Of a DNA stretch of 44,245 bases, positions 13,034 through 29,506 are shown piece after piece (position 1 is the stretch's first letter; each line of letters opens with the position of its first letter). This stretch comes from an uncultured Pseudomonadales bacterium (GTDB lineage Bacteria; Patescibacteriota; Microgenomatia; UBA1400; PJMF01), in NCBI GenBank assembly GCA_964400865.1, contig CAYNWG010000003.1, forward strand, positions 1-44,245, given 5' to 3'. The translations under genes were made by a program, and so were the position numbers. A model generated the notes under the pieces. The model was not told where the DNA came from. It saw only the letters and a program-made list of their open reading frames with translations, and did not search any database.

Positions 13034-13699
13034 CTATTCTGATGTAGTGTGAAAAATTTCTGATTTGACCTCTGATACCGCCAGTGGAACTGTGGTTTGG
13101 ATTAGTGACGTAATTTCGTCTTTGGCTGTTGCAAGATTTAGCCAACTTTCCCATTGATCTCTAGCTAACACCACGGGCTGTCGATCATGAATCGATTTAA
13201 GTGGCGCAATTGCGGAGCGAGTAATAATGGTACAACTCTCAACCGTGTGCTGGCCATCAGTCCAAGTTTCATATAATCCCGCTAAACCCACAATTTCCTC
13301 TCCAACTACTTCCACTCGGTAGGGTACTTTTTGGGGCTTGGATCCATCCATTTTAACTACTGTCTTAAATTCGTAAAACCAGGTTGAGGGGATCAAACAT
13401 CGTTGATGATGCGACCAGGCCGACCGGTATGTCGGCTTGGTCGCGACATCTTCCGAGCGAGCGTTGAATGTACTAAACTTCATTTTCCTCGGATCATCCT
13501 TCCACCAGTTGGGAATGAATGACCAATAACGCATTACTAGTTTATTTGGCGAATTCTTAGAAATTGTCGGAATTAATGACTTGGGATAAAACTTAATTGA
13601 CTGAATATCTTTTTCGTCTTTTGGCATGTTTGATACCTGAAATAAATCCGCAATTTGTCGCGCACTCATGCCAGTGGAAAATGCAAAAAAACCACACAT
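13034..13699 (-). CDS. SOS response-associated peptidase (SRAP / YedK / HMCES family, DUF159)
   Basis: Starts MCG (catalytic Cys2), has the typical length of 221 aa, and carries motifs FNARSE, RCLIP..WFYE and P...IHDRQPV. Confidence 0.85.
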   Translation of the reverse strand: MCGFFAFSTGMSARQIADLFQVSNMPKDEKDIQSIKFYPKSLIPTISKNSPNKLVMRYWSFIPNWWKDDPRKMKFSTFNARSEDVATKPTYRSAWSHHQRCLIPSTWFYEFKTVVKMDGSKPQKVPYRVEVVGEEIVGLAGLYETWTDGQHTVESCTIITRSAIAPLKSIHDRQPVVLARDQWESWLNLATAKDEITSLIQTTVPLAVSEVKSEIFHTTSE

Positions 13700-13700
13700 T

Positions 13701-14429
13701 CTATTGCAATACCTTCATTTCTGTTGGTGCACTACCAGTAAAGTTTAGTGTCCCTCCAGTAAAATTGGCCTGTTGAACATCCAGTCCGGGTACATTGCTA
13801 ATAATATGATTGGCCACACTAACAAAAGTGCTGTTGGCATCAATTTTTCCTAACGGCACTGGTAAACGCCCGACTTCTAAATAATCAATTTGTGCGGTTA
13901 CCTGATTATTTGTCACACTACCTGTGCCTTTCCCATAAATAATCGGGTTCGTCGCAATTACACCCAAGAAATTCATGCCTTTTTCTACGTCTGCTTTGGT
14001 ATATTGAGTACCTCCAACCTGACTAATAAAGCCATCCAGCCGATCCATTCGCAATCTTCCAGCCACTTCAACAGAACCATCGGGGGAAAATTTAATTTGA
14101 ACTTGATCAACAGGCATATACTTCCAAGTACTATAATTCAGTCTCCCCGACACTTCTTCTTGCGTAAATGAGGCTGCTACTGGCTCAGAACCAGAGTAAA
14201 CGACTGATTTACCCTCGATGGGCGACTCAAGGCTTTCAATTTTGGCAGCCGATTTTATTAGATACTCACTGAAGTTTTCCTGAGTTGCCACTACACCTAA
14301 ATCCCTTGGTTTGTCTGAGCCAAACCAACTTGAAACTATTGGTACAAAGCCCAAATAGCCCAAAACCAAAATTGAGCCAACAACTATCAGCACTACTGTT
14401 CCAAATAAAAAAAGGAGAAATGTTTTCAT
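13701..14429 (-). CDS. Hypothetical N-terminally anchored extracytoplasmic protein
   Basis: ATG ORF with an N-terminal TM (FLLFLFGTVVLIVVGSILVLGYLGFV) and a beta-rich ectodomain. Its stop lies 1 nt from the SRAP start. Confidence 0.6.
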   Translation of the reverse strand: MKTFLLFLFGTVVLIVVGSILVLGYLGFVPIVSSWFGSDKPRDLGVVATQENFSEYLIKSAAKIESLESPIEGKSVVYSGSEPVAASFTQEEVSGRLNYSTWKYMPVDQVQIKFSPDGSVEVAGRLRMDRLDGFISQVGGTQYTKADVEKGMNFLGVIATNPIIYGKGTGSVTNNQVTAQIDYLEVGRLPVPLGKIDANSTFVSVANHIISNVPGLDVQQANFTGGTLNFTGSAPTEMKVLQ

Positions 14430-14488
14430 AATAGAATTATTATCTCTCGAAGTGGCCAGATGTCAAATAAGTTGAGTAAATTAGCGTA

Positions 14489-14518
14489 TTGACTTCGCCA
14501 AGAAACTATCTCTATACT
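14489..14518 (+). promoter_or_regulatory. Sigma70-like promoter driving a leaderless mRNA for the surface operon
   Basis: TTGACT 14489-14494, 18-nt spacer, TATACT 14513-14518, then 7 nt to ATG 14526 with no SD. Confidence 0.55.
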
Positions 14519-14525
14519 GGATGAT

Positions 14526-15581
14526 ATGAAACTTCGAAAACAATCGTATTCTTTGGTTGGTTTGCTTTTAGCTGTTTTTTTTGCGCTCTTTAGCCCCCTA
14601 TTTGTAACACAAACTCAAGCGGTGGAAGCTGGTAGCACCTATATGCGCTGTGACCGTATGAAAGAAAATACCAATCCCGGCAACTGTTTGGTAGTTTTTA
14701 CGACATCATCAACTGCGGCCACAGAAACTACCATCAAGCTAACACTTGATGCAGAATGGGTATCTACTACGAATTTTTCCACAACTCCGGGAAACTACAC
14801 AGTATCCACTGCCGGATTACCAGTTGGCGTAACCGCGATGCCAGGTATTGCAACAGCTGACAATGTCTCAGGCAATACTATTCGCTTTCCAGTTACCGCT
14901 CTTACTAACAGCACTACCTACGGATTTTTTATTACTAATGGTGGCACTGGTCTGATTAGCAATCCCGCAGCCTCCACTACCCAAATACATACTATTTTCA
15001 CTCGGACTGGTGCTGATGCCGCGACTGCAGACACTAAAGATGTGGCAGTACCCACCATTGCCAACGACCAAATTGTTATCACTGCCACAGTGGCTCCAAC
15101 TTTTACTTTTGTCTTTAACAACAATGCTCAAAATCTAGCATTAGCCGTGGGCTCAGTCATTTCAGGGACGGGCACCACAATTACCGTCACCACTAATGCA
15201 GCTAGTGGTTGGAGCGCATGGGCTTTGAGTGCTAATCAATCACTTGATTCTGCTGCGTCTGGAGATACCATCGTTACGACTGGTACAGTCAATGATACCC
15301 CAGATACAATCAGCGCGGGTACTGAAGGGTATGTCTTAGATGTTGATCTCACTACGGATGGTGCTAGCGGAGGTACGGTTACGATCGATCCTGAGTATAA
15401 CGGCACGACAACATCAATGGGTGGCACCCTGAGCGCTACCTATGAAGCGATAGCAACCGCTAATGGTGCTGCTAGTAGTGACGTACTTACCCTGATTCCA
15501 AGAGTTGCAATTTCAGGTTTGACAGAAGCAGCCACTGACTACACCGACACACTGACAGTTGTCGGAGCGGGAATCTTCTAG
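14526..15581 (+). CDS. Secreted surface protein, WxL-like C-terminal domain (locus subunit A)
   Basis: Signal peptide MKLRKQSYSLVGLLLAVFFALFSPLFVTQTQAVEA and a Thr/Ala/Gly-rich beta-type composition. The N-terminal domain is paralogous to the N-terminus of the 966-aa protein. The C-terminal half aligns with the 361-aa protein and ends DYTDTLTVVGAGIF. GWSAWAL plus this C-terminal strand recall the two motifs of the WxL domain; that assignment is inference. Confidence 0.6.
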   Translation: MKLRKQSYSLVGLLLAVFFALFSPLFVTQTQAVEAGSTYMRCDRMKENTNPGNCLVVFTTSSTAATETTIKLTLDAEWVSTTNFSTTPGNYTVSTAGLPVGVTAMPGIATADNVSGNTIRFPVTALTNSTTYGFFITNGGTGLISNPAASTTQIHTIFTRTGADAATADTKDVAVPTIANDQIVITATVAPTFTFVFNNNAQNLALAVGSVISGTGTTITVTTNAASGWSAWALSANQSLDSAASGDTIVTTGTVNDTPDTISAGTEGYVLDVDLTTDGASGGTVTIDPEYNGTTTSMGGTLSATYEAIATANGAASSDVLTLIPRVAISGLTEAATDYTDTLTVVGAGIF

Positions 15582-15594
15582 TACACTGCTTAGT

Positions 15595-16734
15595 GTGCAA
15601 AAGCCATCAATACATATCAGCTCACTATTATTCATAATTGCATTTTTTCTGCTGTCATACTTCCCAGTCTTCGCCCAAGTCGATGAGCGACCGCAGGCTG
15701 GATTTACCATCGCCTCTGATTCTGCCTTGATTACTGAAACAACTGAGCTGAGTGGTACTCCCACTGTGACTCCACTGCCCCCACCCGTCAATGCTATCAA
15801 CCTCACCTTGTCTCCCATTACGCTTCAGTTAGAAGTTAAGCCAGGAGAATCTAAATCCGGAGAAATTAAAATTCGCAACAACAGTACGGAGCCTGAAGCG
15901 CTCCGAGTTTCGTTTGCGACCTTTTCTTTTAACGAAACTACTCAGCAAATTAATCTTAATAATCAGAGTGACGAAACATTCCTGCAATGGATATCGGTTG
16001 ATCAACCAGAATTCGTGGTCCAACCCTCTGAGTGGTCAACTGTCAATGTCACCTTTGCTCCACCGCCAGAAGCTTCACTGGGATATTATTTCGCAGTTAT
16101 CTTTAATCGGGTTAGTGAACCAGCAGAAGACGGGACAACCAAGATTGCAGGAGCACCAGCCGTACTTGTTCTCAACAATGTTATTTCTCCATTTGCCAAA
16201 CGCGAACTACAACTGGATTCATTCAAAGTTCCCAAGATTTGGGTAGAATTTCTACCCCAACAATTCTTACTAAACATTAGAAACAGTGGCAACGTTCATT
16301 TGCCACCTACCGGTAATATTTTCATTGATAGTGGTACAAAAAAAGATATTGCTGTACTTTCAATCAATCCTGCCAACAGTTTGATTTTACCTGATTCAAG
16401 CCGAGAATATTCTGTAACTTGGAACGATGGTTTTCCCAAATGGGTAGCAGCTGCAGAAAAAGACCAACCAGTATTAGATGAAAATGGTCAACCCAAACAA
16501 AAGTTAGAATGGAACTTTGCTGAAGCAGATCGATTCCGAATTGGCAAGTATACTGCACACCTTTTGCTAGTGTATGATAATGGCGAACGTGACGTACCAA
16601 TTGAGTCATTTGTTTCATTTTGGGTGATACCATGGCGAATCAGCATAGCAGTCATCATTGTCTCCATCTTTTTCCTACTAGGCATCAGGTCAACCCTAGC
16701 TGGTGTTTTTCGATCCTTCAAACGAAAAAAATAA
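15595..16734 (+). CDS. Cell-surface protein, DUF916/DUF3324-like (WxL-interacting-protein-like), C-terminal TM anchor
   Basis: Signal peptide SSLLFIIAFFLLSYFPVFAQV. Ig-like segment LSPITLQLEVKPGESKSGEIKIRNNSTEPEALRVSF...GYYFAVIF. C-terminal TM plus basic tail (ISIAVIIVSIFFLLGI...FRSFKRKK). Start is GTG 15595, or TTG 15559 which overlaps the upstream gene. Confidence 0.55.
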   Translation: MQKPSIHISSLLFIIAFFLLSYFPVFAQVDERPQAGFTIASDSALITETTELSGTPTVTPLPPPVNAINLTLSPITLQLEVKPGESKSGEIKIRNNSTEPEALRVSFATFSFNETTQQINLNNQSDETFLQWISVDQPEFVVQPSEWSTVNVTFAPPPEASLGYYFAVIFNRVSEPAEDGTTKIAGAPAVLVLNNVISPFAKRELQLDSFKVPKIWVEFLPQQFLLNIRNSGNVHLPPTGNIFIDSGTKKDIAVLSINPANSLILPDSSREYSVTWNDGFPKWVAAAEKDQPVLDENGQPKQKLEWNFAEADRFRIGKYTAHLLLVYDNGERDVPIESFVSFWVIPWRISIAVIIVSIFFLLGIRSTLAGVFRSFKRKK

Positions 16735-17669
16735 TCCCGATTACAATAGCTTGGTTCGTTTTTTTATTTTTTTCTTTTAGCAATCCTAAGACTATTTTGG
16801 CTCAAACTGCCTCAGCCTCAAGTTCTGCCATCATCATTTCGCCGACTTTTCAGGAAGTCACAGTAAACGCAGATGACACAACTCAGACTGCGCAAATTGA
16901 AATCTCCAACCAAACCAATAAAAAACAATTATTTGAGGTATTTGCGGTTTCGGTCAATCAATTTGATAACCAAGGCAACTTTACGTTGGCGGACAAACCG
17001 CTTTCTAACTCTAACTCACCAGATTCTGCGTACATTACCTTCCCAAGTCCCGAATTGGAAATATCACCAAATCAAGTGGCTACAATTCCATTTACAGTTT
17101 TAAATACTCAAAATCTGTCGCCCGGTGGGAACTACTCTGTAGTAATTGTTCGGGCAAAACCAGATCAAGATGATTCACTGCCAAATCAAAGCGTCTTGCC
17201 AGCTGTGTCGTCATTTGTGTTGATTAGAAAAATAGGAGGTGAACAATACAATCTATCGTTGTTGGAAATATCCAATGATCATCAGGTGTGGTGGCAATTA
17301 CCCAAAACATTGAGTTTGGTCTTCGAAAATCAAGGCAATATTCACACAACACCTAGGGGTCAAATAAAAATTACCGATGTATTTGGCAAGGTGGTAGTAG
17401 AAGGCACCATCAATGAAGGCTCGCAATTTGTCTTTCCCCGAACACAAAAAGAGCTGCAGGTGCAACTGAGACAAATTCGCCCCAGCTGGCCAATTATGTT
17501 GTATACCATTACTGTACGGGGTGAATCAAGTCCTGGAGCAATCTCATACTTTCAACAATCATTTAGCGTCTTTGTTTCTTATGTTGGCATCATACTCTCT
17601 CTCTTAGTTGGTTTAATACTGAGCGCTGGCGCATGGTCTCTCCACAAAATCCTGAGGAAGAAGGCATGA
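16632..17669 (+). CDS. Second DUF916/DUF3324-like cell-surface protein with C-terminal TM anchor
   Basis: Same architecture as the previous gene: hydrophobic signal KKIIPITIAWFVFLFFSFSNPKTILAQT, ISPTFQEVTVN...IEISNQTNKKQLFEVF, GGNYSVVIV, and C-terminal TM VGIILSLLVGLILSAGAW plus KILRKKA. The nearest canonical start (ATG 16632) overlaps the upstream gene by 103 nt; see findings. Confidence 0.55.
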   Translation: MANQHSSHHCLHLFPTRHQVNPSWCFSILQTKKIIPITIAWFVFLFFSFSNPKTILAQTASASSSAIIISPTFQEVTVNADDTTQTAQIEISNQTNKKQLFEVFAVSVNQFDNQGNFTLADKPLSNSNSPDSAYITFPSPELEISPNQVATIPFTVLNTQNLSPGGNYSVVIVRAKPDQDDSLPNQSVLPAVSSFVLIRKIGGEQYNLSLLEISNDHQVWWQLPKTLSLVFENQGNIHTTPRGQIKITDVFGKVVVEGTINEGSQFVFPRTQKELQVQLRQIRPSWPIMLYTITVRGESSPGAISYFQQSFSVFVSYVGIILSLLVGLILSAGAWSLHKILRKKA

Positions 17670-18328
17670 GGTTGAACAATCGATGGCGAATTTTACTGAT
17701 TCTTATACTAATTTTGACAGTGTTATTGGTGATATTTTTTACTCAGTTTGTGGGAGAAAAATTTGGCACGGTTTCGGTCGATACCCTTTCTGAACGCTCG
17801 CAAGAATTTATAGCATCGGAACAACAAAAAGGCGGTTCCGAATGGAGAAATAGGTGGGTCGCCATTTCGGCTACACCCGCAGTAGAAAAGACAGCATCTG
17901 CTACAACTGACTGTTTTAGAGTGATAGCGCCATTTCCTATCCGATCAATCGAAAAAAATGATACGAAATCATGCGTAACCACTTTCCGAATCAGCTCTCC
18001 CTATAGCCGAGTAACCATTAGTTTAAGTACCTTATCAACCAAATTAACTGAACACTCGGCCGTACTCATGCGAGAATCAAATACTAAATCGTACACACCC
18101 ATCGCCTACATATCTCAGTTATTTCCGATTTATAAAATATATTCTGATCCGCAGGGAGTAAGTTTTTTTGCTGATACAAATGGGGAGTTGTTATCTGTCG
18201 TATTTAGTGAAACTTCTAGTCAAGAAACTATCGTGCAACAGTCTTTACCAAGTATTCTTGAAGCCATCCAAATTATTCCAAAAACCGAACGACAACTTGC
18301 TGCAACAGCTGCAAACAGCTTACAATGA
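17666..18328 (+). CDS. Hypothetical N-terminally anchored protein of the surface operon
   Basis: ATG 17666 overlaps the upstream stop (ATGA) and is preceded by GAGGAAGAAGG. TM WRILLILILILTVLLVIFF. Confidence 0.6.
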   Translation: MRLNNRWRILLILILILTVLLVIFFTQFVGEKFGTVSVDTLSERSQEFIASEQQKGGSEWRNRWVAISATPAVEKTASATTDCFRVIAPFPIRSIEKNDTKSCVTTFRISSPYSRVTISLSTLSTKLTEHSAVLMRESNTKSYTPIAYISQLFPIYKIYSDPQGVSFFADTNGELLSVVFSETSSQETIVQQSLPSILEAIQIIPKTERQLAATAANSLQ

Positions 18329-19410
18329 AACACTACATGAAATTACAAAATCAATTAGCAACGCTATTCAAGAACTTTTTTTCTAATGGCTTATTCTTTT
18401 TGTTAGTTTTGCCGGCGAGTGGTGCCTACGAACTACATGATTATGGTTTTGGAGCAGGTGGCGTAGGCGTAGCAGATTCTGGCACCTATTCACTCAGCGC
18501 TGTAGCGGGAGAAATTTCTGGTGCACAAGGCATTGGCGCAACTTACAACTTGGGACCTGGACTGCAATTTACCCGTCAAAGCAATGTCCCGGCTGCGCCA
18601 ACTTTTTCCAATCCAGATAATTATTATAACCGTTTGCAATTTATTTTAGATTCCGGTGGTAATCCCAGTGATACATTGTTTGCGATTGCTATAAGCGCTG
18701 ATGATTTTGTTACAACTAACTTTATCCAGACAGACGGCACCATTGGTGCAACAGTTGCTTACCAAACATATGCTGATTGGGGTGGTGGCTCTGGTGAATA
18801 TGTGATTGGCTTAGAAAGAAATACCACCTATAAAATTAAAGTGAAAGCGGTCCAGACAAAGTATACCGAAACAGAATATAGTGTGGCGGCGACAGCCGCC
18901 ACTACCGCAGCTAGTCTCTCATTTGATATTGATGTTTCAGCCTCAGACACCGAGACAGGGCCACCCTACGCAGTGTCTTTTGGACCTCTTGCAATTGGTG
19001 GTGTGACTACCGCCACAGACAAAGTTTGGTTTGATCTTTCCACCAATGGTGATGGCGGTGGCTTTGTGTACGTCTATACGCAGAGCGCAGGTTTGACGAG
19101 CGCCGAAGCGCCCTATACCATCACTTCTGCCACCGCCAATCTGGCTTCTGCTAACGAAGGCTATGGAACTCGAGTGGAAAGCGTTACACAAACGAGCGGC
19201 GGCCCGCTGGCCGCCGTCAGCCCTTATGACGGTACTCTAGAAAACGTAGGTATTCTCAATACCACCTCTCGCAATTTGCTCAATTCAACTGCCCAGCCTA
19301 TTACCAATGGTAGAGCTTCATTTGTACTGAAAGCCAAAGCCTCAACGCTTACCCCCTCCGCCAGCGACTACACCAGCATACTCACTGCAGTTGCCAGTGC
19401 AACGTTTTAA
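18325..19410 (+). CDS. Secreted surface protein, WxL-like C-terminal domain (locus subunit D)
   Basis: ATGA overlap with the upstream stop. Signal peptide FFSNGLFFLLVLPASGA. An FN3-like middle segment (NTTYKIKVKAV). The C-terminal half aligns with the 351-aa protein and ends DYTSILTAVASATF. Confidence 0.6.
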   Translation: MKHYMKLQNQLATLFKNFFSNGLFFLLVLPASGAYELHDYGFGAGGVGVADSGTYSLSAVAGEISGAQGIGATYNLGPGLQFTRQSNVPAAPTFSNPDNYYNRLQFILDSGGNPSDTLFAIAISADDFVTTNFIQTDGTIGATVAYQTYADWGGGSGEYVIGLERNTTYKIKVKAVQTKYTETEYSVAATAATTAASLSFDIDVSASDTETGPPYAVSFGPLAIGGVTTATDKVWFDLSTNGDGGGFVYVYTQSAGLTSAEAPYTITSATANLASANEGYGTRVESVTQTSGGPLAAVSPYDGTLENVGILNTTSRNLLNSTAQPITNGRASFVLKAKASTLTPSASDYTSILTAVASATF

Positions 19411-19455
19411 ATTTAGGTAAATTGCAAAAAGCTAGTGTACAATTGGGACAACACT

Positions 19456-20229
19456 ATGGACGCATTTCAACCTACTCCCGCAATATCCAGATCTACAAAA
19501 AAGCAAAGACCACTGTTTTTTTATCCGTTGTTAATTCTGGTTGCATTACTTTTGGGCGGCTTGGGTTATTATTTCTTCCAAAAGCAACAATTTGTTTCAA
19601 CTGCCGAATCCGAAGCCGCTGAGTTAAAAAAGGTGGTAATTCAAGTTGGCAAGCTGATGGATCTACCCAAAGATGAAACGCCAGTGCTGGCAACGGTAAC
19701 TGATAGAGAAAAAATTAAAACCCAGGCATTTTTTGCTCGCTCAGAAAACGGAGATAAAGTCTTGCTGTATACGAATCTTGGTCGGGCAATTTTGTATCGA
19801 CCCTCTACAAATAAAATTGTGGATGTCACTCTGATTAATACGACAAATACGGCTGATATTCCGTCTGGAACAACAAGTCCCCCCACCGTTGTCAATACTC
19901 CAATCCCCACTTCTACAATAACCCCCACTCCAACTGCCACCGTTCAGACCAAAGTTATTCTGCTCAATGGCACAACGACGCAAGGGTTAACCAACAGCGC
20001 AGAAACTCGGTTGCTAAAGGATGTTACTGGAATTGAAATAATTCAAAAGACTAATGCCACTAAACAAGATTATTCTACAACTCAAGTAGTAGCACTTTCC
20101 CCTACCGCAACAACGGTGGCTAATCAAATTGCCCGCTTATATAACACAACTGTCACCCAACAGTTACCTTCGGGTGAAACCGCAGCTGCTGCTGACGTAG
20201 TAGTGATTCTTGGGGAAAATGCAAATTGA
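19456..20229 (+). CDS. Membrane-anchored LytR_C (LytR/CpsA/Psr C-terminal) domain protein
   Basis: TM LFFYPLLILVALLLGGLGYYFF. C-terminal KVILLNGTTTQGLTNSAETRLLK...ADVVVILGEN is typical of LytR_C. ATG 19456 is preferred over GTG 19435. Confidence 0.6.
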   Translation: MDAFQPTPAISRSTKKQRPLFFYPLLILVALLLGGLGYYFFQKQQFVSTAESEAAELKKVVIQVGKLMDLPKDETPVLATVTDREKIKTQAFFARSENGDKVLLYTNLGRAILYRPSTNKIVDVTLINTTNTADIPSGTTSPPTVVNTPIPTSTITPTPTATVQTKVILLNGTTTQGLTNSAETRLLKDVTGIEIIQKTNATKQDYSTTQVVALSPTATTVANQIARLYNTTVTQQLPSGETAAAADVVVILGENAN

Positions 20230-20332: not shown

Positions 20333-23300
20333 ATGCGGTTTTTGCGCTTGTTATTGTTGTGTGTGGTAGCGGTTTTTGGCCTGATTTTCTTTGTACAACA
20401 ACAACCAGTGATTGCCGCTACAGGTATTCTCAAACAAATTAATTTCCAGGGCAAAGTTGTCAACAAAACAGCAGGCACCAATATTGCAGACAATAATTAT
20501 TCCTTTACTTTTACGATCTATGACGCTGCTTCTGGCGGAACGACCCTCTGGACCGAAACTAAATCGGTTGAGGTAAAAAACGGTATTTTCCAGACTCTAC
20601 TCGGTAGTGGCACTGCCCTACCCGCTTCTATTGATTTTAATACTGACAATATCTATCTGGGTATTAACTTTAACAGCGATGGCGAAATGTCTCCCCGAGT
20701 GCGATTTGCAGCGGTGCCCCAAGCTTTTAATGCACAAAAAGTGGCTGGCCTGACGGTGACTGATACGACTGGAACGCTGACTATTCCTAATGGAGCCACG
20801 ATTGCTTTCTCTGGAGCGTATACGACTACATTTACCTCGACTAATAATTCATCAGTTACACTTCCCACATCAGGTACACTGGCTACACTCGCTGGAACAG
20901 AAGAATTTACTAATAAAACAATTGGTTCAACTGGTTTAATTTTCTCTGGAGCATCCACAGACGTTGATGCTGCATCTGGACAGGGTTTGACTTTTCAAGG
21001 TCGAGCGGCTTCTTCATTTGATACCACCTCAGGTAATTTGAGTTTCCAGGTGGCTGGTACCGGCACAACCGCCGTGGTTCAGATTGGAGCTGGTGGCAGT
21101 GGTAACACTACCCCAGATTACTTAGCGCTTGATGTAAAGTCTGACGCCGGAGATCCTGCTGGTGGTGCTGAGGGATACATTTACTACAACACTGCTGATA
21201 ATAAATTCCGTTGTTATCAAAATGCTGGTTGGACGGATTGTATTGGAAGTGGTGGATCAAGCAATTGGACCGTCGGTAATGGCATCATTTACCCCAACAA
21301 TCCCACCTTGGACTTATTTATTGGAGGCCTAGCTACCTCATCAGCCAAATTTGCATTCATCAATGTCAACAACGGGACACCAACGGCCTCTATCTCCGCC
21401 GGTACCAATGGAGCAACCTTCTTAACCGCAAGCGGGTATCTTTCGGCTACAGCAAAACAAAATTTGACCTTGGGTAACTCCGTTACTTACAACACTACCG
21501 GAAACATCTTGCTAAATCCCAATGGCACAGGGAACGTGGGAATTGGGACTACCTCACCATTCTATAAATTTATTGTGCACAACTCCAGTGGAGGAACACC
21601 GTTCGCGGTTTCTGATCAATCTTTTGGATCATTGGGAACTGCAAAAGCATATATCACCTCCAATGACACTTGGGGAACTCGATTTCTACTCGAAAACACA
21701 GACGCGGGTGGTACAACACATGGTTTAATGAGCTATGGTGCAACTAATCCGTATGCAGCAGCTGGGACTTTTGCAATCATTGTGGGTGGTTCGGACAAAT
21801 TTGCAATCACGAATAGTGGGAATGTTGGAGTCGGCACAAATTATCCCTCAGCATTGTTTGATGTCGCTGGCTCTGCGTCAATCTCCGGCGCACTCGCATT
21901 TCGTGGTACAACAGATCCAAAAATCAACATCCTTAATGGTGAAAACTTTGGTATTCAAACCAGTGTCGGTGGTGATGCGGGCTTGACCGAAGTTTTAACA
22001 ATCCTAAACAGTGGCAACGTCGGTATAGGCACCACGACTCCTGGAGGAATCCTACACGCTGTCGGCACAGCCACTACTACACCACTCTTTGCGACCACTA
22101 CCACAATGTCGGGTACACCACTTACAATGTTAGATTTTAAATTCAACACAGTCACTAATTTAGGTCGAATTGGTGGAGTCACTGCAAATTCAACTGATAC
22201 ATTTTATATTTACGGTACTGCTGGCAGACAAATTGCACTGGGCGCAAGTTCTAGCATGACTCCTCACTTACTGATTAATACGAGTGGTAATGTTGGCATT
22301 GGGACAACGAGTCCTGTCGCAAAACTTGAATTGGTAGGTACGAATGATGTAACACAACTTATTGTTAAAGCATCAAGTGGTCAATCCATGACCAATCCAA
22401 TTATTCAACTACAAGATAGTAGTGGCAATACTCTTATGGATATTAGTGCCAGTGGCCATGAAACGACCTTTATTGGTAAAGATGCGGGAAGAAATAACAG
22501 CGGTGCTGGATTGAGTGGTGGCTATTCGAATACTTTCATTGGATGGCAATCTGGATATTCTCATAATAATTATAGTGGCAATACATACTTGGGTCAGTCA
22601 AGTGGTTACTATGAAGAAGATAGTGCAGGTAACACATTCATTGGAGCTGCAGCTGGGAAGGGTACGGCGCTATTTACTTCTCCTTCCAATACAATTGTTG
22701 GTAATAGTGCAGGATACAAGATGGGAAATTCATCAGGAATGAATGTGTTCTTGGGCAATGATGCTGGATATAATGTGGTAACTGGAGCAGGAAATCTGTT
22801 CCTAGGATATCAGGCAGGTTACAATGAAACTGGCTCAAACAAACTCTATATTGATAACTCAAACACCTCATCACCGTTAATTTGGGGTGACTTCAGCACA
22901 AATGTAGTTAACTTTAACGGCAATGTGGGCATTGGGACAACGAGTCCCGACGACGCACTCGATGTCACGGGAGTGATTGATACATCGGAATATTATCAAT
23001 TGGATAATGTAACTATCCTCAATCAAGTTAATACCGGTTCATTGCTACTTGGGACAAGTGCTGGGACCAGCATAGTTGCTGGAGCTGATTATAATACCTT
23101 ACTTGGATACAACGCAGGGTATAGCATGAACAATGCGACGTCTGACTTTAATATTGCTATCGGGTATAACGCAGGATACGGAAATACCAGCGGTTCTAAT
23201 AACATATACGCTGGAGTAGACGCGGGTTACTACAATCAGACAGGTAGATACAATATCTTCCAGGGTTACCGGGCTGGTTATGGCACAGCAGCTTACACAG

Positions 23301-26300
23301 GCTCTGACGACAATATCGCTGTTGGACAAAGTGCTCTATATTCCTTAGGAAGTAATGCTGATTACAACATCGCACTTGGTTATCAAAGCGGATATGAAAA
23401 TACTACCGGCACCTATAATCTCTACCATGGTTATCGAGCCGGCTTCTACAATCAGACCGGTAGCTACAATATCTTCCAGGGTTTCCGGGCAGGTTATGGC
23501 ACAGCAGCTTACACAGGCTCAGACAACAACATCGCACTAGGAAATGACGCTCTTTTTTATATAGGAAGCAGTACGGATAATAATATAGCATTAGGGTATC
23601 GAGCTGGCTTCTACAATGAGACCGGAACTGACAATATGTTCCAGGGATATGAAGCAGGTATGGGAACATCAGCATACACAGGCTCAGACAACAATATCGC
23701 ACTAGGAGAGAGTTCTCTTTATTCATTAGGAAGTAATGCCGATAATAATATCGCACTTGGTTATCAGGCTGGGTATTCGAATACTACTGGTACATATAAT
23801 AACTTCCAGGGCTATCAGGCCGGTTATTACAGCCAGACAGGTCAATGGAATATCTTCCAAGGAAATCTAGCAGGTCGCGGCACGACAGCTTACACAGGCT
23901 CAGACAACAATATCGCCCTTGGCGCGAGCGCCCTGTATTCCTTGGAGAGTTACGCCGATAATAATATCGCACTAGGATATTATGCCGGATATTCTAATTC
24001 TTCCGGAACAGACAACCTATACTTTGGTGTTGGTTCGGGCCAGAATAACCAAACAGGTACATTTAATATTTTCCTGGGCAGTAATGCAGGAACTGGCTTA
24101 TCAGTAAACACAGGCTCTGACAACAATATCGCTATTGGACGAGAAGCAATGAATTCTATTGGAAGCAGTGCTGATGAAAATATTGCCATTGGGTTTGCTG
24201 CCGGGTATAAGAATAATACAGCAACCAATAACATATCCATGGGTTCGGCAGCCGGATATTACAACTTATCAGGAACAAATAATATTTTCCTGGGAACAAG
24301 TGCGGGTATGGGCAATTTCTCTAATTACACAGGCTCAGACAACAATATCGCCCTCGGACAAAATGCTCTTAATTCTATCGGAAGTAGCTCCGATAATAAT
24401 ATCGCACTTGGTTATCAAGCAGGATATTCAACAACAACTGGCGATGGGAATATATTTTTGGGATACCAGGCTGGGTATAGTGAAACCGGCAGTGACAAAC
24501 TCTACATCGATAATTCCAACACAAGCTCACCACTTATTTGGGGCGACTTTGTAACAAATTTTGTTAATTTCAATGGTAACGTTGGTATCGGCTCAACAGC
24601 TCCTTCCCAACTACTGGATGTCGTTGGTGCCATCCGCCTTGGTGCTGCAGGTGCTAATAATGTGCTCAATACCACCATTGGTGGCGGTGCACCAAGTGGC
24701 TATCTCTATTGGGGAGACAGAGCTGTCTGTGATAGCACCGGTAACTGTGGTGGTGGCACGAGTAACTGGACAGTGGGTGCTGGATTCCTTCATCCCAATA
24801 ACCCGTCGCTAGATATGTTCATTGGTGGATACGCTTCGGCTTCAGCTAAATTTGCATTTTTGAATGTTAATTCAGGTATTCCTACCGCTTCCATCTCAGG
24901 CAATCTTGCACTTGCCGCTCCCACAGGTACCGATCCCGCAACCAAACTCAATATCTACAATGGTGGCTCATTTGGTATTCAAACATCTGTCGGTGGCGAC
25001 ACTGGACTGGCTGAAAGGCTTACGATTCTAAATACTGGTAACGTCGGTATCGGAACAACCAGCCCTGGAGCTAATTTGGAAGTTATTGGTAACGCAAAGC
25101 TAAGTAGTGTGTTAGCTCTGAATGGAGCTGCCCTAGAGGCTCAATCTGCAATTAATATTTCACTTCAAGATGTTCCGTCATACCAAGATAGTGGAATAAA
25201 AGTTACTGCAAGTAAAGCAGGAGATACCTTTGGACTATGGAATACATTAACAAACTCTGGTACATCGAACACAACAGCGGGTGTATACAACACAATCAAT
25301 CAAAATACCACATCTGATTACTATGAGGGTGTTGGGTCACTTAACTGGCTATATACCGCCAACGATGCATACATTCAATATTTGTATGGAGCAAAAACAA
25401 CATTGTCAACGCATGCAACTGATGTTGGAATTGGATATTATGCAAATTCTCACTTTTCTACTACAGGAGGAGAACAATACGGCTTGTATATCGATTTAAA
25501 TAACGTTAACTCTACTAACTACGGAGTTTACGAAGCAGGTGGAGCTACTAACTATTTTGCGGGTAATGTAGGAATTGGAACAACAACACCAAATGGGTTA
25601 TTTCATGTTGCTAATACGAGCAGTGGCAACCTTAGAACAGGTGGCTTATTTCAGAACGCTGGGACTACTGCAGGAACTAGTGTTAGTTTAGATTTTTCAA
25701 CCACTAGTAATAATATTAATGCAAGAATTTCGGCAATTAGAACTGGTGCAACTTACGAACCTACTGAATTAGCTTTTTATTCAAGCTTTGATGGCACACT
25801 ATCCGAAGCAGTTAGAATTGATTGGGACGGGAAAGTCGGGATTGGCACTACTGCTCCAGGAGCAAAGTTACAAATCGGCACAGCCGGTACAACTTTGGGT
25901 ACTATGCGTCTGACTGGTAATACAGCTGGGTACTTGCAACTGCAACCCAGTGCGACCGCTGGGGATTGGACACTGACTTTTCCCGCCAATGATGGAGATA
26001 ACGCTCAAGTCCTAACTACAAATGGCAGTGGCGTGACTTCCTGGACGACTGTTTCTGGAGGTAGCGGAGCAAACACAGCGTTGTCAAACCTAGCAAGCGT
26101 CGCTATTAACACCAGTTTGTTCAGCGATGCCGCCGATACTGATGATCTTGGCTCAACAACCTTTGAGTGGAATTCACTCTTCTTGGCAGATGGTTCTGGC
26201 TTAACTGCCGGTGGTGGGCTGTTCTTTGGTACTGATCAAGACTTACTGTTAACATATGATGAAACAACCAGCGATGCCTTAGTATTTTCTGATGGCACCA

Positions 26301-29300
26301 ACCCATTTCTTTCCATTAAAGATCAGGGTACCGCGGCGGATATATCTTTTAATAACGACAGCTTCTTTATTTCAAATAATGGCAATGTAGGTATTGGAAC
26401 GACTACGCCCTTTACTAAACTATCAGTCGTGAGTGCTGATACTGCCATAAGTGGCGTGACTGCAACGACTGCTAAAGTGGGTGTCTATGGTGGTGCTGGA
26501 ACTGCGGCTGCTTACGGGGTCATGGGTCAGAACAATAATGCGGCAGGTGTTGCTGTACTGGCGCAACAAGATTCAACCGGGTACGCACTCTATTCACTGG
26601 GAGGTAAAAACTACTTTTCTGGCAATGTGGGCATCGGAACAACCGTACCCACAGAAAAGTTAACAGTAATCGGCAATGCGTCAATATCAGGTACTCTACA
26701 ACTAGCGCCCAACGTAGCTGTAGACGCTGGCACCTGTGATGCATCTGCTAAAGGGAAACAATATTATAACGGTACTGATAACAAAATGTATTATTGCAAT
26801 GGCACAGCTTGGACAGTGATGGGGGCGGGCGATGTCAAACTAGAAACTTTTGTTGCCAATGGCAACTATATACCAACTTCAGATACAGTTTTAACTATTG
26901 TAGAAGCGATTGGTCCAGGTGGAGGTGGAGGTGGAGGTGGTAGTGCTGCCACAGGTACTGCCACTACTGGCGGAGGTGGAGGTGGAGGTGGTGCCTATAC
27001 CACTAAAACCTTTAGTTATGCCAATGTCACCCCCAATGTCAGTATTGTCGTTCCTACTGGTGGCGTAGGTGCCAACGGTGGCACCAATGCTGCAGGCGGA
27101 GACGGTGGTGCTGCTTCAGCAGATACCTCATTTGGTTCTTTGCTGGTGGCATACAAAGGTGGAGGAGCAGGCAATGGAGCCACGGGAACTACCTATGGTG
27201 GAGGTGGAGGTGGAGGTGGTAGTGGCGCCGCTGGCGGTAATAGCACAAATCAAACTGGCGCTGCAGGTGGTGGACCCGGTGGTGCCGCCGCGGCTGCTAG
27301 TGTAGATGGTGTTGGTGGTGGTGGTGGTGGCACCACAGCGGCCGGAGGAAATAGTAGTTGGGGTGGTGGAGGTGGCGCACCCAGTCGTATTGGTGGATCT
27401 GCTGGATATGCTGGTGGCAGTAGTGTGAGAGGTGGTGGTGCGGGTGGCGCTGGTGGTAGCTGCGCGGCTTCCTGTGCAACTACAGCTGGGGGTGCTGGCG
27501 GTAATGTGCCAGGAGCAGTTGCTGGTGGTGGAGGTACCGCTGGTTCAGGCGCGGGTGGAGCTGGTGGTACTGGCACCGATAATGCTACTGGCATTGGTGG
27601 TGACGGTGGCGGTGGTGGTGCGAGTAATAATACTGCAGGGGGAAATGGTGGTGCTGGTGGATATGGTGGCAATCCAGGTGGTGGTGGCGGAGGTGGCGGT
27701 GCAGCAGTCTACAGTGCTCCCAATGGTACTGGTGGCAGGGGTGGCAATGGCGGCAGAGGCGAAGTTCGGGTCTGGTCTGTCAAAGGCTCTGGAGCTGACT
27801 ATGCTGAACTCTATTCAAGCCATGATGAAACACTAGAAGCTGGAGATGTCGTAGCCATAGACTCAACCCTCAAAGCTGGTGTCAAAAAAAGTACCGCACC
27901 CTATGAAAATGGTCTGCTGGGCATTGTTTCAACATTGCCAGGCCAAATCGTCGGAGATGTGGAGGATGAAGCTCTCCATATTGTACCGATTGCTTTGGCT
28001 GGCCGTGTGCCGGTTAAAGTTTCAACAGAGAATGGTGCTATTAAATCCGGAGACTTTCTCACAGCATCTTCTGTACCGGGTGTAGCTATGAAAGCGACTT
28101 CGGTTGGTTTAACAATTGGTACAGCTATCCAAGATTATGATGGTCCCGCAGATCAAATTGGTCGAGTCAGTGTATTCGTGAATACGACTTTCACCTCAGG
28201 ACTGCTCCTCAAAGATGTCTTGGAAAGTCATGGAGTCACGATCCCTGAAGCAGTTTGGCGCTCAAATACTGTTGACTACTCCTGGTATGTCCTCGCAACT
28301 ATGCTTGAAAAACAGCAGGTGATTTCTCAGCAACCTACACTTACAGAAACATATGTAGATAGAATAGTGGCAGGCCTTGAAATGATTGCATCCCGATTAG
28401 TTACTCGAGAGATATTTACCCAAAAATTGTCCGCTCAAACAGGCAATGATCTAGAAATCAATTTAGCTACAGACAATAAATTGGTTGTCTACACTGCTCC
28501 AGCTACTATTAATAGTGACGCAACTGAGAGTGGTAGAGTAGCTGCTCTAACCGTGGATGCTACAGGCAAGCTCATAGTGAGTGGCAATACCACGACTCAA
28601 AGTTTGACCACCCAAAGCATCACCTTTGTTGATCCAACCAATGCCAGTGGCTCAGCTACGATTGTGATGGACAATCAGGGCAATGCCTACTTTGCAGGGC
28701 AAGTTGGCGTGGGCAATGGTTCTCAACTAGCTGGTCTAGAAATTAATAGTGGCTCACTAGGGACGGCTGGATTAAAACTGGCTATGCTGGCCACCGATGA
28801 CCCGCAAGTTGCCAGCTCAAGCGGCAGAGTCTTGGGTGTGGATAGTGAGGGTAATGTGATTTTGGTAGACAATCCGAGAAACAACGAAAATCTCGATCCA
28901 CCTAAAATTCAAGCGAGCCAAATAGAAGGGTTAGAAGTGGCATTATTTAATGCAACGGCTTCTGGCGAGCTGCGGATAAATCGCCGTTCATTCTTTACTA
29001 CCTTTGTGGAGTTTGTCCAAACCGTCATCTTCCGAGGCGAAGTTAACTTCTTGGGCAAGACCTACTTTGCTCAAGACATGGCTGGCACTGCTTTGATAGT
29101 CAATAATGAACAAGTAGTGGATGTTACTTTTGAAAAACCATATGAGTACCCACCTATCGTAACAATTTCTTACAAACTCAAAGAAGCGACTGAAAGTGCA
29201 TTCTTAAACCAAAGTAGTCGTGTGGCAGTATCAGATGTGACCGAACAAGGTTTTAGCATTGTGCTCGAACGACCCACCATTCGCGATGTCGAGTTTACGT

Positions 29301-29506
29301 GGGTAGCCATCGCAGTGAAAGAACCCAAGCAAAGTAGGGGTACGCTGAAAGTGATTCCCTCTCCCGCACCAACTCCAGAGATTTCTCAAAATCCAATTCC
29401 TACAGTCACTCCTGGTCCAACTATCACCCCAAGTCCAACCATCACTCCAGACGTAACTGAGGCTCTGAGTCCAAGCGCTACCCTTATTCCAGAACCGTCA
29501 CCCTGA
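20333..29506 (+). CDS. Giant (3057 aa) secreted fibre/adhesin-like protein
   Basis: Single ORF from an ATG with signal peptide MRFLRLLLLCVVAVFGLIFFVQQQPVIAA. More than 10 copies of the SGNVGIGTTSP motif seen in tail-fibre-like proteins. Two arrays of Hep_Hag/YadA-head-like repeats (NIALGYQAGYSNTTG), a poly-Gly domain, a DYAELY...AGDVV C-terminal module, and a P/T-rich tail. Confidence 0.9.
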   Translation: MRFLRLLLLCVVAVFGLIFFVQQQPVIAATGILKQINFQGKVVNKTAGTNIADNNYSFTFTIYDAASGGTTLWTETKSVEVKNGIFQTLLGSGTALPASIDFNTDNIYLGINFNSDGEMSPRVRFAAVPQAFNAQKVAGLTVTDTTGTLTIPNGATIAFSGAYTTTFTSTNNSSVTLPTSGTLATLAGTEEFTNKTIGSTGLIFSGASTDVDAASGQGLTFQGRAASSFDTTSGNLSFQVAGTGTTAVVQIGAGGSGNTTPDYLALDVKSDAGDPAGGAEGYIYYNTADNKFRCYQNAGWTDCIGSGGSSNWTVGNGIIYPNNPTLDLFIGGLATSSAKFAFINVNNGTPTASISAGTNGATFLTASGYLSATAKQNLTLGNSVTYNTTGNILLNPNGTGNVGIGTTSPFYKFIVHNSSGGTPFAVSDQSFGSLGTAKAYITSNDTWGTRFLLENTDAGGTTHGLMSYGATNPYAAAGTFAIIVGGSDKFAITNSGNVGVGTNYPSALFDVAGSASISGALAFRGTTDPKINILNGENFGIQTSVGGDAGLTEVLTILNSGNVGIGTTTPGGILHAVGTATTTPLFATTTTMSGTPLTMLDFKFNTVTNLGRIGGVTANSTDTFYIYGTAGRQIALGASSSMTPHLLINTSGNVGIGTTSPVAKLELVGTNDVTQLIVKASSGQSMTNPIIQLQDSSGNTLMDISASGHETTFIGKDAGRNNSGAGLSGGYSNTFIGWQSGYSHNNYSGNTYLGQSSGYYEEDSAGNTFIGAAAGKGTALFTSPSNTIVGNSAGYKMGNSSGMNVFLGNDAGYNVVTGAGNLFLGYQAGYNETGSNKLYIDNSNTSSPLIWGDFSTNVVNFNGNVGIGTTSPDDALDVTGVIDTSEYYQLDNVTILNQVNTGSLLLGTSAGTSIVAGADYNTLLGYNAGYSMNNATSDFNIAIGYNAGYGNTSGSNNIYAGVDAGYYNQTGRYNIFQGYRAGYGTAAYTGSDDNIAVGQSALYSLGSNADYNIALGYQSGYENTTGTYNLYHGYRAGFYNQTGSYNIFQGFRAGYGTAAYTGSDNNIALGNDALFYIGSSTDNNIALGYRAGFYNETGTDNMFQGYEAGMGTSAYTGSDNNIALGESSLYSLGSNADNNIALGYQAGYSNTTGTYNNFQGYQAGYYSQTGQWNIFQGNLAGRGTTAYTGSDNNIALGASALYSLESYADNNIALGYYAGYSNSSGTDNLYFGVGSGQNNQTGTFNIFLGSNAGTGLSVNTGSDNNIAIGREAMNSIGSSADENIAIGFAAGYKNNTATNNISMGSAAGYYNLSGTNNIFLGTSAGMGNFSNYTGSDNNIALGQNALNSIGSSSDNNIALGYQAGYSTTTGDGNIFLGYQAGYSETGSDKLYIDNSNTSSPLIWGDFVTNFVNFNGNVGIGSTAPSQLLDVVGAIRLGAAGANNVLNTTIGGGAPSGYLYWGDRAVCDSTGNCGGGTSNWTVGAGFLHPNNPSLDMFIGGYASASAKFAFLNVNSGIPTASISGNLALAAPTGTDPATKLNIYNGGSFGIQTSVGGDTGLAERLTILNTGNVGIGTTSPGANLEVIGNAKLSSVLALNGAALEAQSAINISLQDVPSYQDSGIKVTASKAGDTFGLWNTLTNSGTSNTTAGVYNTINQNTTSDYYEGVGSLNWLYTANDAYIQYLYGAKTTLSTHATDVGIGYYANSHFSTTGGEQYGLYIDLNNVNSTNYGVYEAGGATNYFAGNVGIGTTTPNGLFHVANTSSGNLRTGGLFQNAGTTAGTSVSLDFSTTSNNINARISAIRTGATYEPTELAFYSSFDGTLSEAVRIDWDGKVGIGTTAPGAKLQIGTAGTTLGTMRLTGNTAGYLQLQPSATAGDWTLTFPANDGDNAQVLTTNGSGVTSWTTVSGGSGANTALSNLASVAINTSLFSDAADTDDLGSTTFEWNSLFLADGSGLTAGGGLFFGTDQDLLLTYDETTSDALVFSDGTNPFLSIKDQGTAADISFNNDSFFISNNGNVGIGTTTPFTKLSVVSADTAISGVTATTAKVGVYGGAGTAAAYGVMGQNNNAAGVAVLAQQDSTGYALYSLGGKNYFSGNVGIGTTVPTEKLTVIGNASISGTLQLAPNVAVDAGTCDASAKGKQYYNGTDNKMYYCNGTAWTVMGAGDVKLETFVANGNYIPTSDTVLTIVEAIGPGGGGGGGGSAATGTATTGGGGGGGGAYTTKTFSYANVTPNVSIVVPTGGVGANGGTNAAGGDGGAASADTSFGSLLVAYKGGGAGNGATGTTYGGGGGGGGSGAAGGNSTNQTGAAGGGPGGAAAAASVDGVGGGGGGTTAAGGNSSWGGGGGAPSRIGGSAGYAGGSSVRGGGAGGAGGSCAASCATTAGGAGGNVPGAVAGGGGTAGSGAGGAGGTGTDNATGIGGDGGGGGASNNTAGGNGGAGGYGGNPGGGGGGGGAAVYSAPNGTGGRGGNGGRGEVRVWSVKGSGADYAELYSSHDETLEAGDVVAIDSTLKAGVKKSTAPYENGLLGIVSTLPGQIVGDVEDEALHIVPIALAGRVPVKVSTENGAIKSGDFLTASSVPGVAMKATSVGLTIGTAIQDYDGPADQIGRVSVFVNTTFTSGLLLKDVLESHGVTIPEAVWRSNTVDYSWYVLATMLEKQQVISQQPTLTETYVDRIVAGLEMIASRLVTREIFTQKLSAQTGNDLEINLATDNKLVVYTAPATINSDATESGRVAALTVDATGKLIVSGNTTTQSLTTQSITFVDPTNASGSATIVMDNQGNAYFAGQVGVGNGSQLAGLEINSGSLGTAGLKLAMLATDDPQVASSSGRVLGVDSEGNVILVDNPRNNENLDPPKIQASQIEGLEVALFNATASGELRINRRSFFTTFVEFVQTVIFRGEVNFLGKTYFAQDMAGTALIVNNEQVVDVTFEKPYEYPPIVTISYKLKEATESAFLNQSSRVAVSDVTEQGFSIVLERPTIRDVEFTWVAIAVKEPKQSRGTLKVIPSPAPTPEISQNPIPTVTPGPTITPSPTITPDVTEALSPSATLIPEPSP
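23100..24500 (+). repeat. Tandem coding super-repeat (~216 nt / 72 aa, about 6 copies) built from 14-17 aa Hep_Hag-like units
   Basis: The GGCTC[AT]GAC[AG]ACAA[TC]ATCGC (GSDNNIA) anchor recurs at 23300, 23516, 23681, 23897, 24113 and 24332. Spacings are 216, 165, 216, 216 and 219 nt. Confidence 0.85.
26915..27785 (+). repeat. Gly-rich low-complexity coding region (GGT/GGA/GGC runs) in the fibre gene
   Basis: Begins TIVEAIGPGGGGGGGGSA...GGGGGGGGAYTTKTF and ends GGRGGNGGRGEVRVWSV. Local GC is far above the window average. Confidence 0.85.

Follow-up and report, generated by a model that had tools for sequence, protein, structure and literature searches.

A patescibacterial surface-protein locus built around duplicated, remotely WxLIP-related membrane proteins

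Introduction

Patescibacteria (or candidate phyla radiation, CPR) live attached to host cells, and we know of little that has been established about their means of attachment beyond type IV pili. Five adjacent genes for secreted and membrane-anchored proteins on contig CAYNWG010000003.1 (positions 14489-19410 of the window, by which we mean the whole 44,245-nucleotide stretch of DNA that was analysed and whose numbering is used throughout) raise the question of what kind of surface structure they encode and which known system it resembles. An initial annotation, made from the letters of the window, had named these genes A, B1, B2, C and D and compared them to the WxL loci of Firmicutes; we find all five open reading frames (ORFs) where it had placed them, on the same strand. 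As described below, the paired proteins B1 and B2 are, by profile comparison, remote homologues of the WxLIP proteins of those loci, and the gene set recurs across the phylum together with a gene for a giant fibre protein. A and D, the putative clients of B1 and B2, end in a module of their own, which is not detectably a WxL domain. The five genes, with immunoglobulin abbreviated as Ig, are as follows:

14526..15581, + strand: A, secreted two-domain protein (351 amino acids)
15595..16734, + strand: B1, two-Ig membrane-anchored protein (GTG start; alternative TTG at 15559)
16620..17669, + strand: B2, paralogue of B1 (stop firm, start uncertain)
17666..18328, + strand: C, N-anchored protein (~220 amino acids; its ATG overlaps the B2 stop, ATGA)
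18325..19410, + strand: D, secreted protein (361 amino acids; its ATG overlaps the C stop, ATGA)

B1 and B2 are remotely related to WxLIP proteins

By hydropathy, B1 and B2 have an N-terminal signal segment, a C-terminal transmembrane segment and a basic Lys/Arg tail, and both contain two tandem Ig-like domains of PapD/WxLIP-like type, B1 belonging to a first-position and B2 to a second-position orthogroup. Homologues of the B proteins are 300-400 amino acids long, and among the full-length ones the transmembrane segment is present in 164 of 171 and the basic tail in 157 of 171. The two proteins are paralogues of each other (BLASTP E = 2e-9; hhalign 99.9%, E = 6e-34). In the AlphaFold model of B1, which has a mean pLDDT (predicted local distance difference test) of 85, a signal helix is followed by a disordered linker, then by two beta-sandwich domains, and the chain closes with a long helix; confidence dips in the loops at residues ~110-130 and ~170-190, the second of which lies just ahead of G-x-P-A-x-L-V-L, the strand of domain 1 with the highest conservation.

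Reference WxL loci were obtained with a DUF916 consensus peptide as tblastn query, which led to Enterococcus, Listeria and Bacillus plasmids. We then compared 58-sequence alignments of the B1 and B2 groups with six bona fide WxLIPs by hhalign. The B1 group matched them at 95.4% (E = 2e-8, 247 columns) and the B2 group at 97.7% (E = 1.8e-12, 254 columns), in each case over both Ig domains, while reversed-sequence controls scored 2-3%; an earlier alignment of 40 B sequences had reached 88%. From these scores over both domains, set against the reversed controls, we conclude that B1 and B2 are, at the level of sequence profiles, genuine remote homologues of the DUF916-DUF3324 proteins called WxLIP (PF06030 + PF11797) with the same membrane topology. 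The initial annotation had called the B proteins DUF916/DUF3324-like, and this stands on the profile scores and the common architecture, though in Pfam they remain below the gathering threshold. Solved WxLIPs are also found by Foldseek with the B1 model against the PDB (9i25_C, E = 2.5e-9; 9i1y_B, E = 1.4e-8), where 9i25 is the Enterococcus faecium locus A WxLIP bound to a long WxL protein and 9i1y is also a solved WxLIP; these E. faecium structures, of the WxLIP alone and in the complex, were both released in January 2026.

A and D end in the same C-terminal module

Protein A begins with a hydrophobic signal segment (hydropathy) and is composed of two domains, of which the N-terminal one (residues ~34-191) is common to a membrane protein, F, described below, and the C-terminal one (~192-351) is a beta-sandwich module of the form 'DY...F-COOH' that is common to D. 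In D hydropathy finds only a short hydrophobic stretch, and residues 2-26 are modelled as a helix; there follow a Gly-rich N-terminal segment (28-79), which A lacks, an FN3 domain (~90-190) and the 'DY...F-COOH' module (~195-361). The AlphaFold model of D has a mean pLDDT of 84 and a confident C-terminal beta-sandwich of ~165 residues. Both proteins are secreted, beta-rich and rich in Thr, Ser, Ala and Gly, and D is the more conserved, with a mean column identity of 58% versus 33% for A. The Gly-rich segment of D (window 18406-18561) holds three short 'x-Y-x-L ... G-x-x-G' repeats that are conserved in the family and modelled with pLDDT <50. This segment is a candidate for oligomerisation or strand donation; a search for its 'NYxL' repeat motif in the other proteins of the window gave no linking match.

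The relationship between the two C-terminal halves is visible by BLASTP (29% identity over 154 amino acids, E = 1e-5) and clear between family profiles (hhalign 99.2%, E = 2.5e-19, 143 columns). Both families close with the signature A-x-D-Y-[TAS]-[DE]-T-[LWI]-T-[VIL]-[VI]-[GA]-[AS]-[GA]-x-[FY]-COOH, so that the common domain and terminal strand that had been proposed for A and D are borne out by the profile match and the signature. The D-Y pair (positions -14 and -13) is invariant, and all 151 of 151 complete copies, 84/84 in A proteins and 67/67 in D proteins, terminate in F or Y. A complete A module ends at, or a few residues from, the C-terminus of its protein, and it closes not only A but also larger proteins of 784-1641 amino acids that otherwise carry protease, TIG, NHL or Big_5 domains, namely an S8 protease with CHB_HEX_C domains (P0408), a protein of TIG repeats (P0419), one with TIG domains and an NHL propeller (P0422) and one with Big_5 domains (P0425).

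Searches of the databases place neither protein in a recognised family. A, C and D had no match in single-protein scans of Pfam and NCBIfam, and searches of PDB sequences with the A, B and D profiles returned FN3 noise only. With the D model, the Foldseek list against the PDB is dominated by the FN3 domain of D and all matches at E <=0.001 are of FN3 type; against viral structures the list is again dominated by FN3, with only vague matches to FN3 and jelly-roll tail proteins.

The gene set is conserved across Patescibacteria

B1 has 558 database matches, including 'Patescibacteria group bacterium' and 'Candidatus Levybacteria'; D has at least 588, of which the best 120 are about 50-88% identical and include some from Moranbacteria; and the A family comprises 431 cluster representatives at E <=0.001. 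When one genome per species was scanned, a B relative turned up in 421 genomes, and 80 of those loci were examined. Together with locus L001 and the window they make up the 82 loci to which the counts below refer, in which ORFs were called, assigned with family hidden Markov models and clustered. Homologues from Levyibacteriota, Moraniibacteriota and Saccharibacteria support the possibility, raised in the initial annotation, that the genome is CPR/Patescibacteria-like, and the survey of gene order that it had proposed found the gene set kept in 80 further species genomes. The following genes beyond D enter the comparison:

19435..20229, + strand: E, N-anchored accessory protein (19/82 loci) whose LytR_C domain scores right on the Pfam threshold
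20333..29506, + strand: G, giant surface fibre protein of 3057 amino acids (homologues in 65/82 loci)
29509..32409, - strand: F, membrane protein of 966 amino acids, beyond G

The B family is present in 82/82 loci, the A/D/F families in 74/82, and C or its counterpart C2 in 64/82. Two layouts account for the arrangement of these genes: A-B-B(-B)-C-D(-E)-G with F often near, which is that of the window and of Levyibacteriota-like genomes, and (C2-)D-A(-A)-B-B(-B)(-C2)-G, which is that of Saccharibacteria and Moraniibacteriota. The other loci contain 24 giant ORFs of at least 1200 amino acids, and 24/24 are encoded downstream of the cluster in its own orientation. G of the window matches 23/24 of them by BLASTP; most of these alignments (30-63% identity) fall in the N-terminal 150-760 residues, and five of the 23 fall instead in a C-terminal region (query residues ~2475-2720). 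The tie between the five genes and a giant fibre encoded downstream, proposed for the window, is backed by conserved synteny (65/82 loci).

We also used these loci to follow the two B genes. Where a locus has exactly two full-length B proteins, as 58 do, each protein finds its best match in another locus at the same position (116/116 tests); the median score to this orthologue is ~394 bits, versus ~50 bits to the paralogue within one locus, from which we conclude that the duplication is ancient and has been kept. The initial annotation was right that B1 and B2 are paralogous; the duplication, which it had noted for the window, is no local oddity and is instead an ancient and universal feature of the system.

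C of the window, with one N-terminal transmembrane segment by hydropathy, had been considered an orphan, which it is not, since homologues occur in 64 related loci. They fall into a C form (32 loci) and a C2 form (32 loci), which are homologous to each other (hhalign 99.1%). G has a conserved N-terminal region of ~300 amino acids, a Gly-rich stretch and an H-type lectin domain at residues 2929-2993, and the Gly-rich stretch accounts for the rise of the guanine-plus-cytosine content to 0.52 at ~26-28 kilobases. The N-terminus of F is 40% identical to A residues 10-191 (E = 4e-31), and the remainder has FN3-like and CarboxypepD_reg domains and C-terminal transmembrane helices. F-type proteins of ~900-950 amino acids recur in the A-family search, and the F orthologue in L001 lies divergently upstream of A (E = 6e-38).

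Several records in this set bear unexpected names. One locus (L071, DATHJH010000022.1) is labelled Candidatus Limnocylindria (Chloroflexota), and many of the records L009-L088 are labelled 'uncultured Pseudomonadales', 'Gammaproteobacteria' or 'Bdellovibrionales' despite their patescibacterial cluster. These are probably mislabelled or misbinned metagenome-assembled genomes, or possibly cases of gene transfer. In the literature that we searched, on Patescibacteria with WxL, WxLIP, PapD-like assembly, donor strands or giant surface proteins, we found this locus nowhere described. Southlakia has essential FN3 and lectin genes, SEML1_0890/0891 (PMC10633639), which were considered as a possible D homologue and set aside, SEML1_0890 having just 195 amino acids and a different neighbourhood.

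The five genes are tightly joined

We read the A-B1-B2-C-D set as a five-gene operon, and judged by its junctions in the window it is apparently translationally coupled. The ATGA overlaps previously noted at 17666 (B2/C) and 18325 (C/D) are both read in the sequence, and B1 can indeed start either within A, at TTG 15559, or 14 nucleotides after it, at GTG 15595; the database gene call for B1 (P0001, 379 amino acids) takes the GTG, 14 nucleotides past the A stop. The start of B2 is less regular. In the stretch ahead of the B2 signal peptide (16620-16740), in-frame ATG, GTG or TTG codons occur only at 16620 and 16632, ~100 nucleotides inside B1, in a stretch that encodes the conserved FWVIPW motif of B1. 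The upstream ATG is made by the conserved ...IPW... codons of B1 and recurs in close relatives. The real start of B2 may be a non-canonical ATA, ATC or ATT near 16729-16740, just past the B1 stop, and in a more distant locus (L017) B2 has an ordinary ATG, 14 nucleotides after B1. Two signal-like elements lie at the ends of the set, both identified by consensus only:

14489..14518, + strand: promoter-like site (TTGACT-18 nucleotides-TATACT, 10/12 match)
19390..19403, + strand: weak terminator-like hairpin with a T-rich tail (5-pair stem, overlapping the end of D)

The ATG of A stands 8 nucleotides after the -10 hexamer of the promoter-like site, and a leaderless transcript from this ATG (14526) is possible. 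The initial annotation had assigned a leaderless promoter here; the consensus match and its spacing hold up, but such sites are not enriched in the region, where 11 were found versus 12.3 expected in shuffled sequence. A second promoter-like site on the opposite strand (14439-14466, -; TTGACA-16-GATAAT, 11/12) is a better match and ends ~9 nucleotides before the ATG of a divergent gene for a 242-amino-acid membrane protein (13701-14429, -). If both sites are real, both divergent genes would be leaderless.

A surface-display reading and the evidence against it

The reading that we favour, to which we give about an even chance of being right, is that the locus is a divergent, re-tooled, Patescibacteria-wide counterpart of the WxL/WxLIP (Csc) clusters of Firmicutes and serves to display surface proteins. 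B1 and B2 would be exported, their C-terminal helix would keep them fixed in the cytoplasmic membrane, and their two Ig-like domains would catch secreted proteins that end in a module of the A/D type with its D-Y...[F/Y]-COOH strand. The catch would probably be made by a loop or strand of B domain 1 inserted into the sheet of the client, and the binding element would probably be the flexible loop together with the conserved G-x-P-A-x-L-V-L strand that closes this domain. Clients would thus be kept on the cell surface non-covalently; A and D would be the constant ones, and the S8 protease and the TIG/NHL and Big_5 proteins would be anchored at their C-terminus through the same module. To the same envelope structure would also belong C, F and the lectin-bearing G, and this structure would most likely serve attachment to hosts or substrates.

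We infer binding of the module by B from analogy with WxLIP-WxL pairs and with PapD-type chaperones, for which strand insertion is known. For the former, AlphaFold predicts that a hairpin of the WxLIP completes the WxL sandwich (PMC10599100), and a solved complex of a WxLIP with a long WxL protein exists in PDB 9i25. The presence of two B orthogroups and two clients suggests dedicated pairs (B1-A and B2-D, or the reverse) or a B1-B2 heterodimer, and the constant adjacency of G with its lectin domain suggests that the whole structure would serve adhesion.

Several observations weigh against this reading. On the B side, the proteins had only sub-threshold Ig matches in single-protein Pfam and NCBIfam scans, and B1 missed the Pfam gathering threshold of WxLIP_PGBD with 14 bits versus a cutoff of 27.3. 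Among 40 B homologues sub-threshold WxLIP_PGBD matches occurred in 10 (best E = 7.5e-5) and WxLIP_HBD matches in none (0/40), while the generic family fn3_5, with sub-threshold matches in 32/40, outscored WxLIP_PGBD in members; Cep192_D4 (17/40) and ASH (14/40) also matched below threshold, and CARDB is a further generic Ig family matching B domain 1. The conserved N-terminal motif of WxLIPs, NQIDKxxxYFDLK (PMC10599100), is not kept in the B proteins, and the B segment aligned with it, P-I-N-L-T-x-S-P-V-x-L-x-L-E-T-x-P-G, agrees only at the N, at one L and at the P. The Foldseek match of B1 to solved WxLIPs is no better than its matches to the SPD-2 domain of CEP192 (1e-10) or to the chaperones CsuC, CfaA, Caf1M and FimC (5e-10 to 1e-7). 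As to assembly, AlphaFold folds the C-terminal domain of D confidently as a monomer, so that a missing strand is not evident in the model, and G itself has no A/D module.

On the client side, Pfam WxL (PF13731, E <=1) matched 0/46 A homologues and 0/40 D homologues. By hhalign against an alignment of 25 WxL sequences, the full D alignment scored 0.8% and the full A alignment 12.5%, in the case of A with a match confined to the final 25 columns, and the domain-trimmed A and D alignments scored <1%, the same as the reversed control. The solved long WxL chain 9i25_A was absent among the 50 matches of the D model by Foldseek at E <=0.001, a search made with the whole uncropped model and dominated by FN3; the small-WxL profile itself finds 9i25_A only at E = 0.002. 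Candidate proximal WxL sites read G-W-S-A-W in A and G-F-V-Y-V in D, and the distal strand, D-Y-T-D-T-L-T-V-V, has no Trp at the WxL position, as had been observed before, with some A homologues having a W two residues earlier. A likeness seen by eye between A (...TVTTNAASGWSAWAL and ...DYTDTLTVV) and WxL (...VQVTDNRGTGAGWTL and ...YTATINWEL), with a spacing of ~105-115 residues, was rejected because the profile-profile scores equal those of the reversed controls. The resemblance of A and D to the WxL family that the initial annotation had proposed is thus not upheld by Pfam, hhalign or Foldseek. We conclude that A and D carry a module of their own and are not detectably WxL domains, and that with no detectable homology the client side of the analogy rests on gene context.

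Alternative explanations

The locus, whose B1 fold is as close to chaperones as to WxLIPs, might instead assemble a fibre by chaperone assistance without an usher, which we think unlikely, though it is the strongest of the alternatives. D would polymerise by donor-strand exchange through its Gly-rich N-terminal extension, proteins with the A module would be tips or adaptors like FimH, B1 and B2 would be tethered PapD-like chaperones or platforms, and F or C would form the base. Its model is the family of chaperone-usher systems (PapD/FimC, Caf1M, archaic CsuC, alternative CfaA), which the locus resembles in the two-domain Ig chaperone fold among the best Foldseek matches of B1, in beta-sandwich clients whose conserved C-terminal strand has an aromatic end, and in the conserved, probably flexible N-terminal extension of D. 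That D is unusually conserved for a surface protein fits such a role, as does the mature N-terminus, whose 50 residues are conserved yet modelled with the low confidence expected of a segment that becomes ordered only in an oligomer; A, two-domain and devoid of the extension, resembles in this a tip adhesin of pili. The invariant C-terminal aromatic residue with its free carboxylate recalls the docking of chaperone-usher pilins in the cleft of the chaperone (Arg8 and Lys112 of PapD). However, no usher gene was found among the conserved families of the 82 loci (B, A/D/F, G, C/C2 and E) or the Pfam-scanned window proteins, nor was another candidate polymerase found among those families, and here there is no outer membrane. 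The B proteins have no sequence match to the PapD family (PapD_N/PapD_C, 0 in 40) and are membrane-anchored like WxLIPs, whereas chaperone-usher chaperones are soluble. The C-terminal domain of D is modelled as complete, and no filament is ascribed to these genes in the literature searched. A more elaborate proposal, which we also consider unlikely, is a new type of appendage without an outer membrane in which B1 and B2 would hand over polymerising D, A-module tips would be interchangeable, and the structure would carry or position the giant lectin fibre G, with which Patescibacteria would grip their hosts.

It is also unlikely that the genes encode co-regulated but independent surface proteins that form no complex, the B proteins being anchored Ig adhesins or spacers, A and D secreted binding proteins and the C-terminal strand a feature of the fold, and less likely still that D and perhaps A form the subunit of an S-layer or envelope lattice anchored in the membrane by B and C. 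The generic Ig families that match B domain 1 (fn3_5, Cep192, ASH, CARDB) and the absence of A and D from any recognised family are what independent proteins would lead one to expect. Strict co-inheritance in fixed order of A, at least two B genes, C, D and G across distant classes is not, and neither are the overlapping start and stop codons, the separate orthogroups of B1 and B2 in all 116 tests, or the recurrence of the A module as the C-terminal end of enzymes that are otherwise unrelated; the terminal aromatic residue, present in 151/151 copies, points to recognition of a free C-terminus beyond the needs of fold stability. A lattice would suit secreted, beta-rich proteins with abundant Thr, Ser, Ala and Gly and membrane-anchored partners, and the system is widespread in a phylum for which distinctive surface layers are reported from cryo-electron tomography. 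S-layer proteins usually diverge fast, however, whereas D keeps the high identity noted above in its best 120 matches, including those from Moranbacteria; Pfam scans found no SLH or other S-layer anchoring domains, and finding the A module on proteases and adhesins is easier to reconcile with an anchoring tag than with a lattice. Synteny, orthogroup stability and the terminal aromatic residue together make both the independent set and the lattice less likely.

Comparison with WxL clusters and meaning

Of the known systems, the WxL/WxLIP (Csc) cluster of Firmicutes is the closest in function and gene logic. These clusters were described in Bacilli by Siezen 2006 (PMC1534035) and by Hassan & Williamson (PMC9772566, PMC10599100), who define a cluster as one or more WxLIPs together with two or more WxL proteins within four genes (PMC10599100) and place >91% of known WxL sequences in Firmicutes (PMC9772566). 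B1 and B2 resemble WxLIPs in their signal peptide, two Ig-like domains, C-terminal transmembrane helix and length of ~340-380 amino acids (for WxLIPs ~320-380), and the locus as a whole resembles a cluster in having an anchored two-Ig protein, two secreted proteins with a C-terminal beta-sandwich, a small anchored protein and a large adhesin near. The multi-domain proteins that re-use the A module at their C-terminus recall the 'large WxL' proteins (described in PMC9772566); a WxL domain likewise occupies the extreme C-terminus, in small and in large multi-domain proteins. In form, 80 loci follow the cluster pattern, with at least two WxLIP-like genes plus A and D, while none of the tests run identifies the client domain as WxL. 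The earlier claim that the gene content mirrors WxL loci thus holds for the form of the cluster and the WxLIP-like B proteins and fails for A and D.

The differences are as marked. A WxL domain has two Trp-x-Leu motifs on adjacent strands in a D/R/GTxAG context and ends ...TWxLxDAP, whereas the A/D module has no W-x-L pair and ends [F/Y]-COOH. The locus invariably has two or three WxLIP-like genes, which diverged long ago, while the commonest WxL cluster has one; C has an N-terminal transmembrane segment where the small protein of WxL clusters has an LPXTG anchor; and the host phylum is Patescibacteria, the NQIDKxxxYFDLK motif is absent from B, and F and a conserved giant fibre gene are added. 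The B proteins are accordingly distant members of the WxLIP superfamily, as far as profiles can tell, and A and D fail as WxL domains. Like the donor-strand fibres of TasA and archaeal AbpA (PMC9245690), the proteins are secreted and beta-rich with a Sec signal peptide and might donate strands without an usher; those systems have no WxLIP-like partners, and Pfam matches to TasA/camelysin (PF12389) were found in neither A nor D.

What is new here is a phylum-wide, WxLIP-based surface system with a different client module, duplicated putative receptors and a giant fibre. WxL/WxLIP clusters have been seen as a speciality of Firmicutes (Bacilli), and WxLIP homologues as the duplicated core of a locus across Patescibacteria widen the range of the family; two membrane-tethered Ig domains would suggest an old solution to surface display in bacteria without an outer membrane. 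With its co-inherited giant lectin fibre, the locus is a defined and testable candidate for patescibacterial attachment. For any CPR genome, the D-Y...F-COOH tag could serve to compile the set of surface-displayed proteins, with B1 and B2 as candidate receptors for the tag. Saccharibacteria, which have the D-A-B-B-C2-G form, are now genetically tractable, so that these predictions are open to direct test. The locus makes the surface display of CPR and their attachment to hosts experimentally addressable, through a kind of locus that specialists of WxL proteins or of CPR would find surprising.

Other genes in the window

Two further genes lie outside the system. A gene for an SOS-response-associated peptidase (SRAP; 13034-13699, -), with a clear Pfam match of 1.8e-46, has no relation to the locus. 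The window also contains a second giant ORF (2086-8094, -; 2002 amino acids) with LamG, FN3 and Pur_ac_phosph_N-like domains, which is unrelated to the G family and shows a weak similarity to F in its FN3 region (E = 3e-5).

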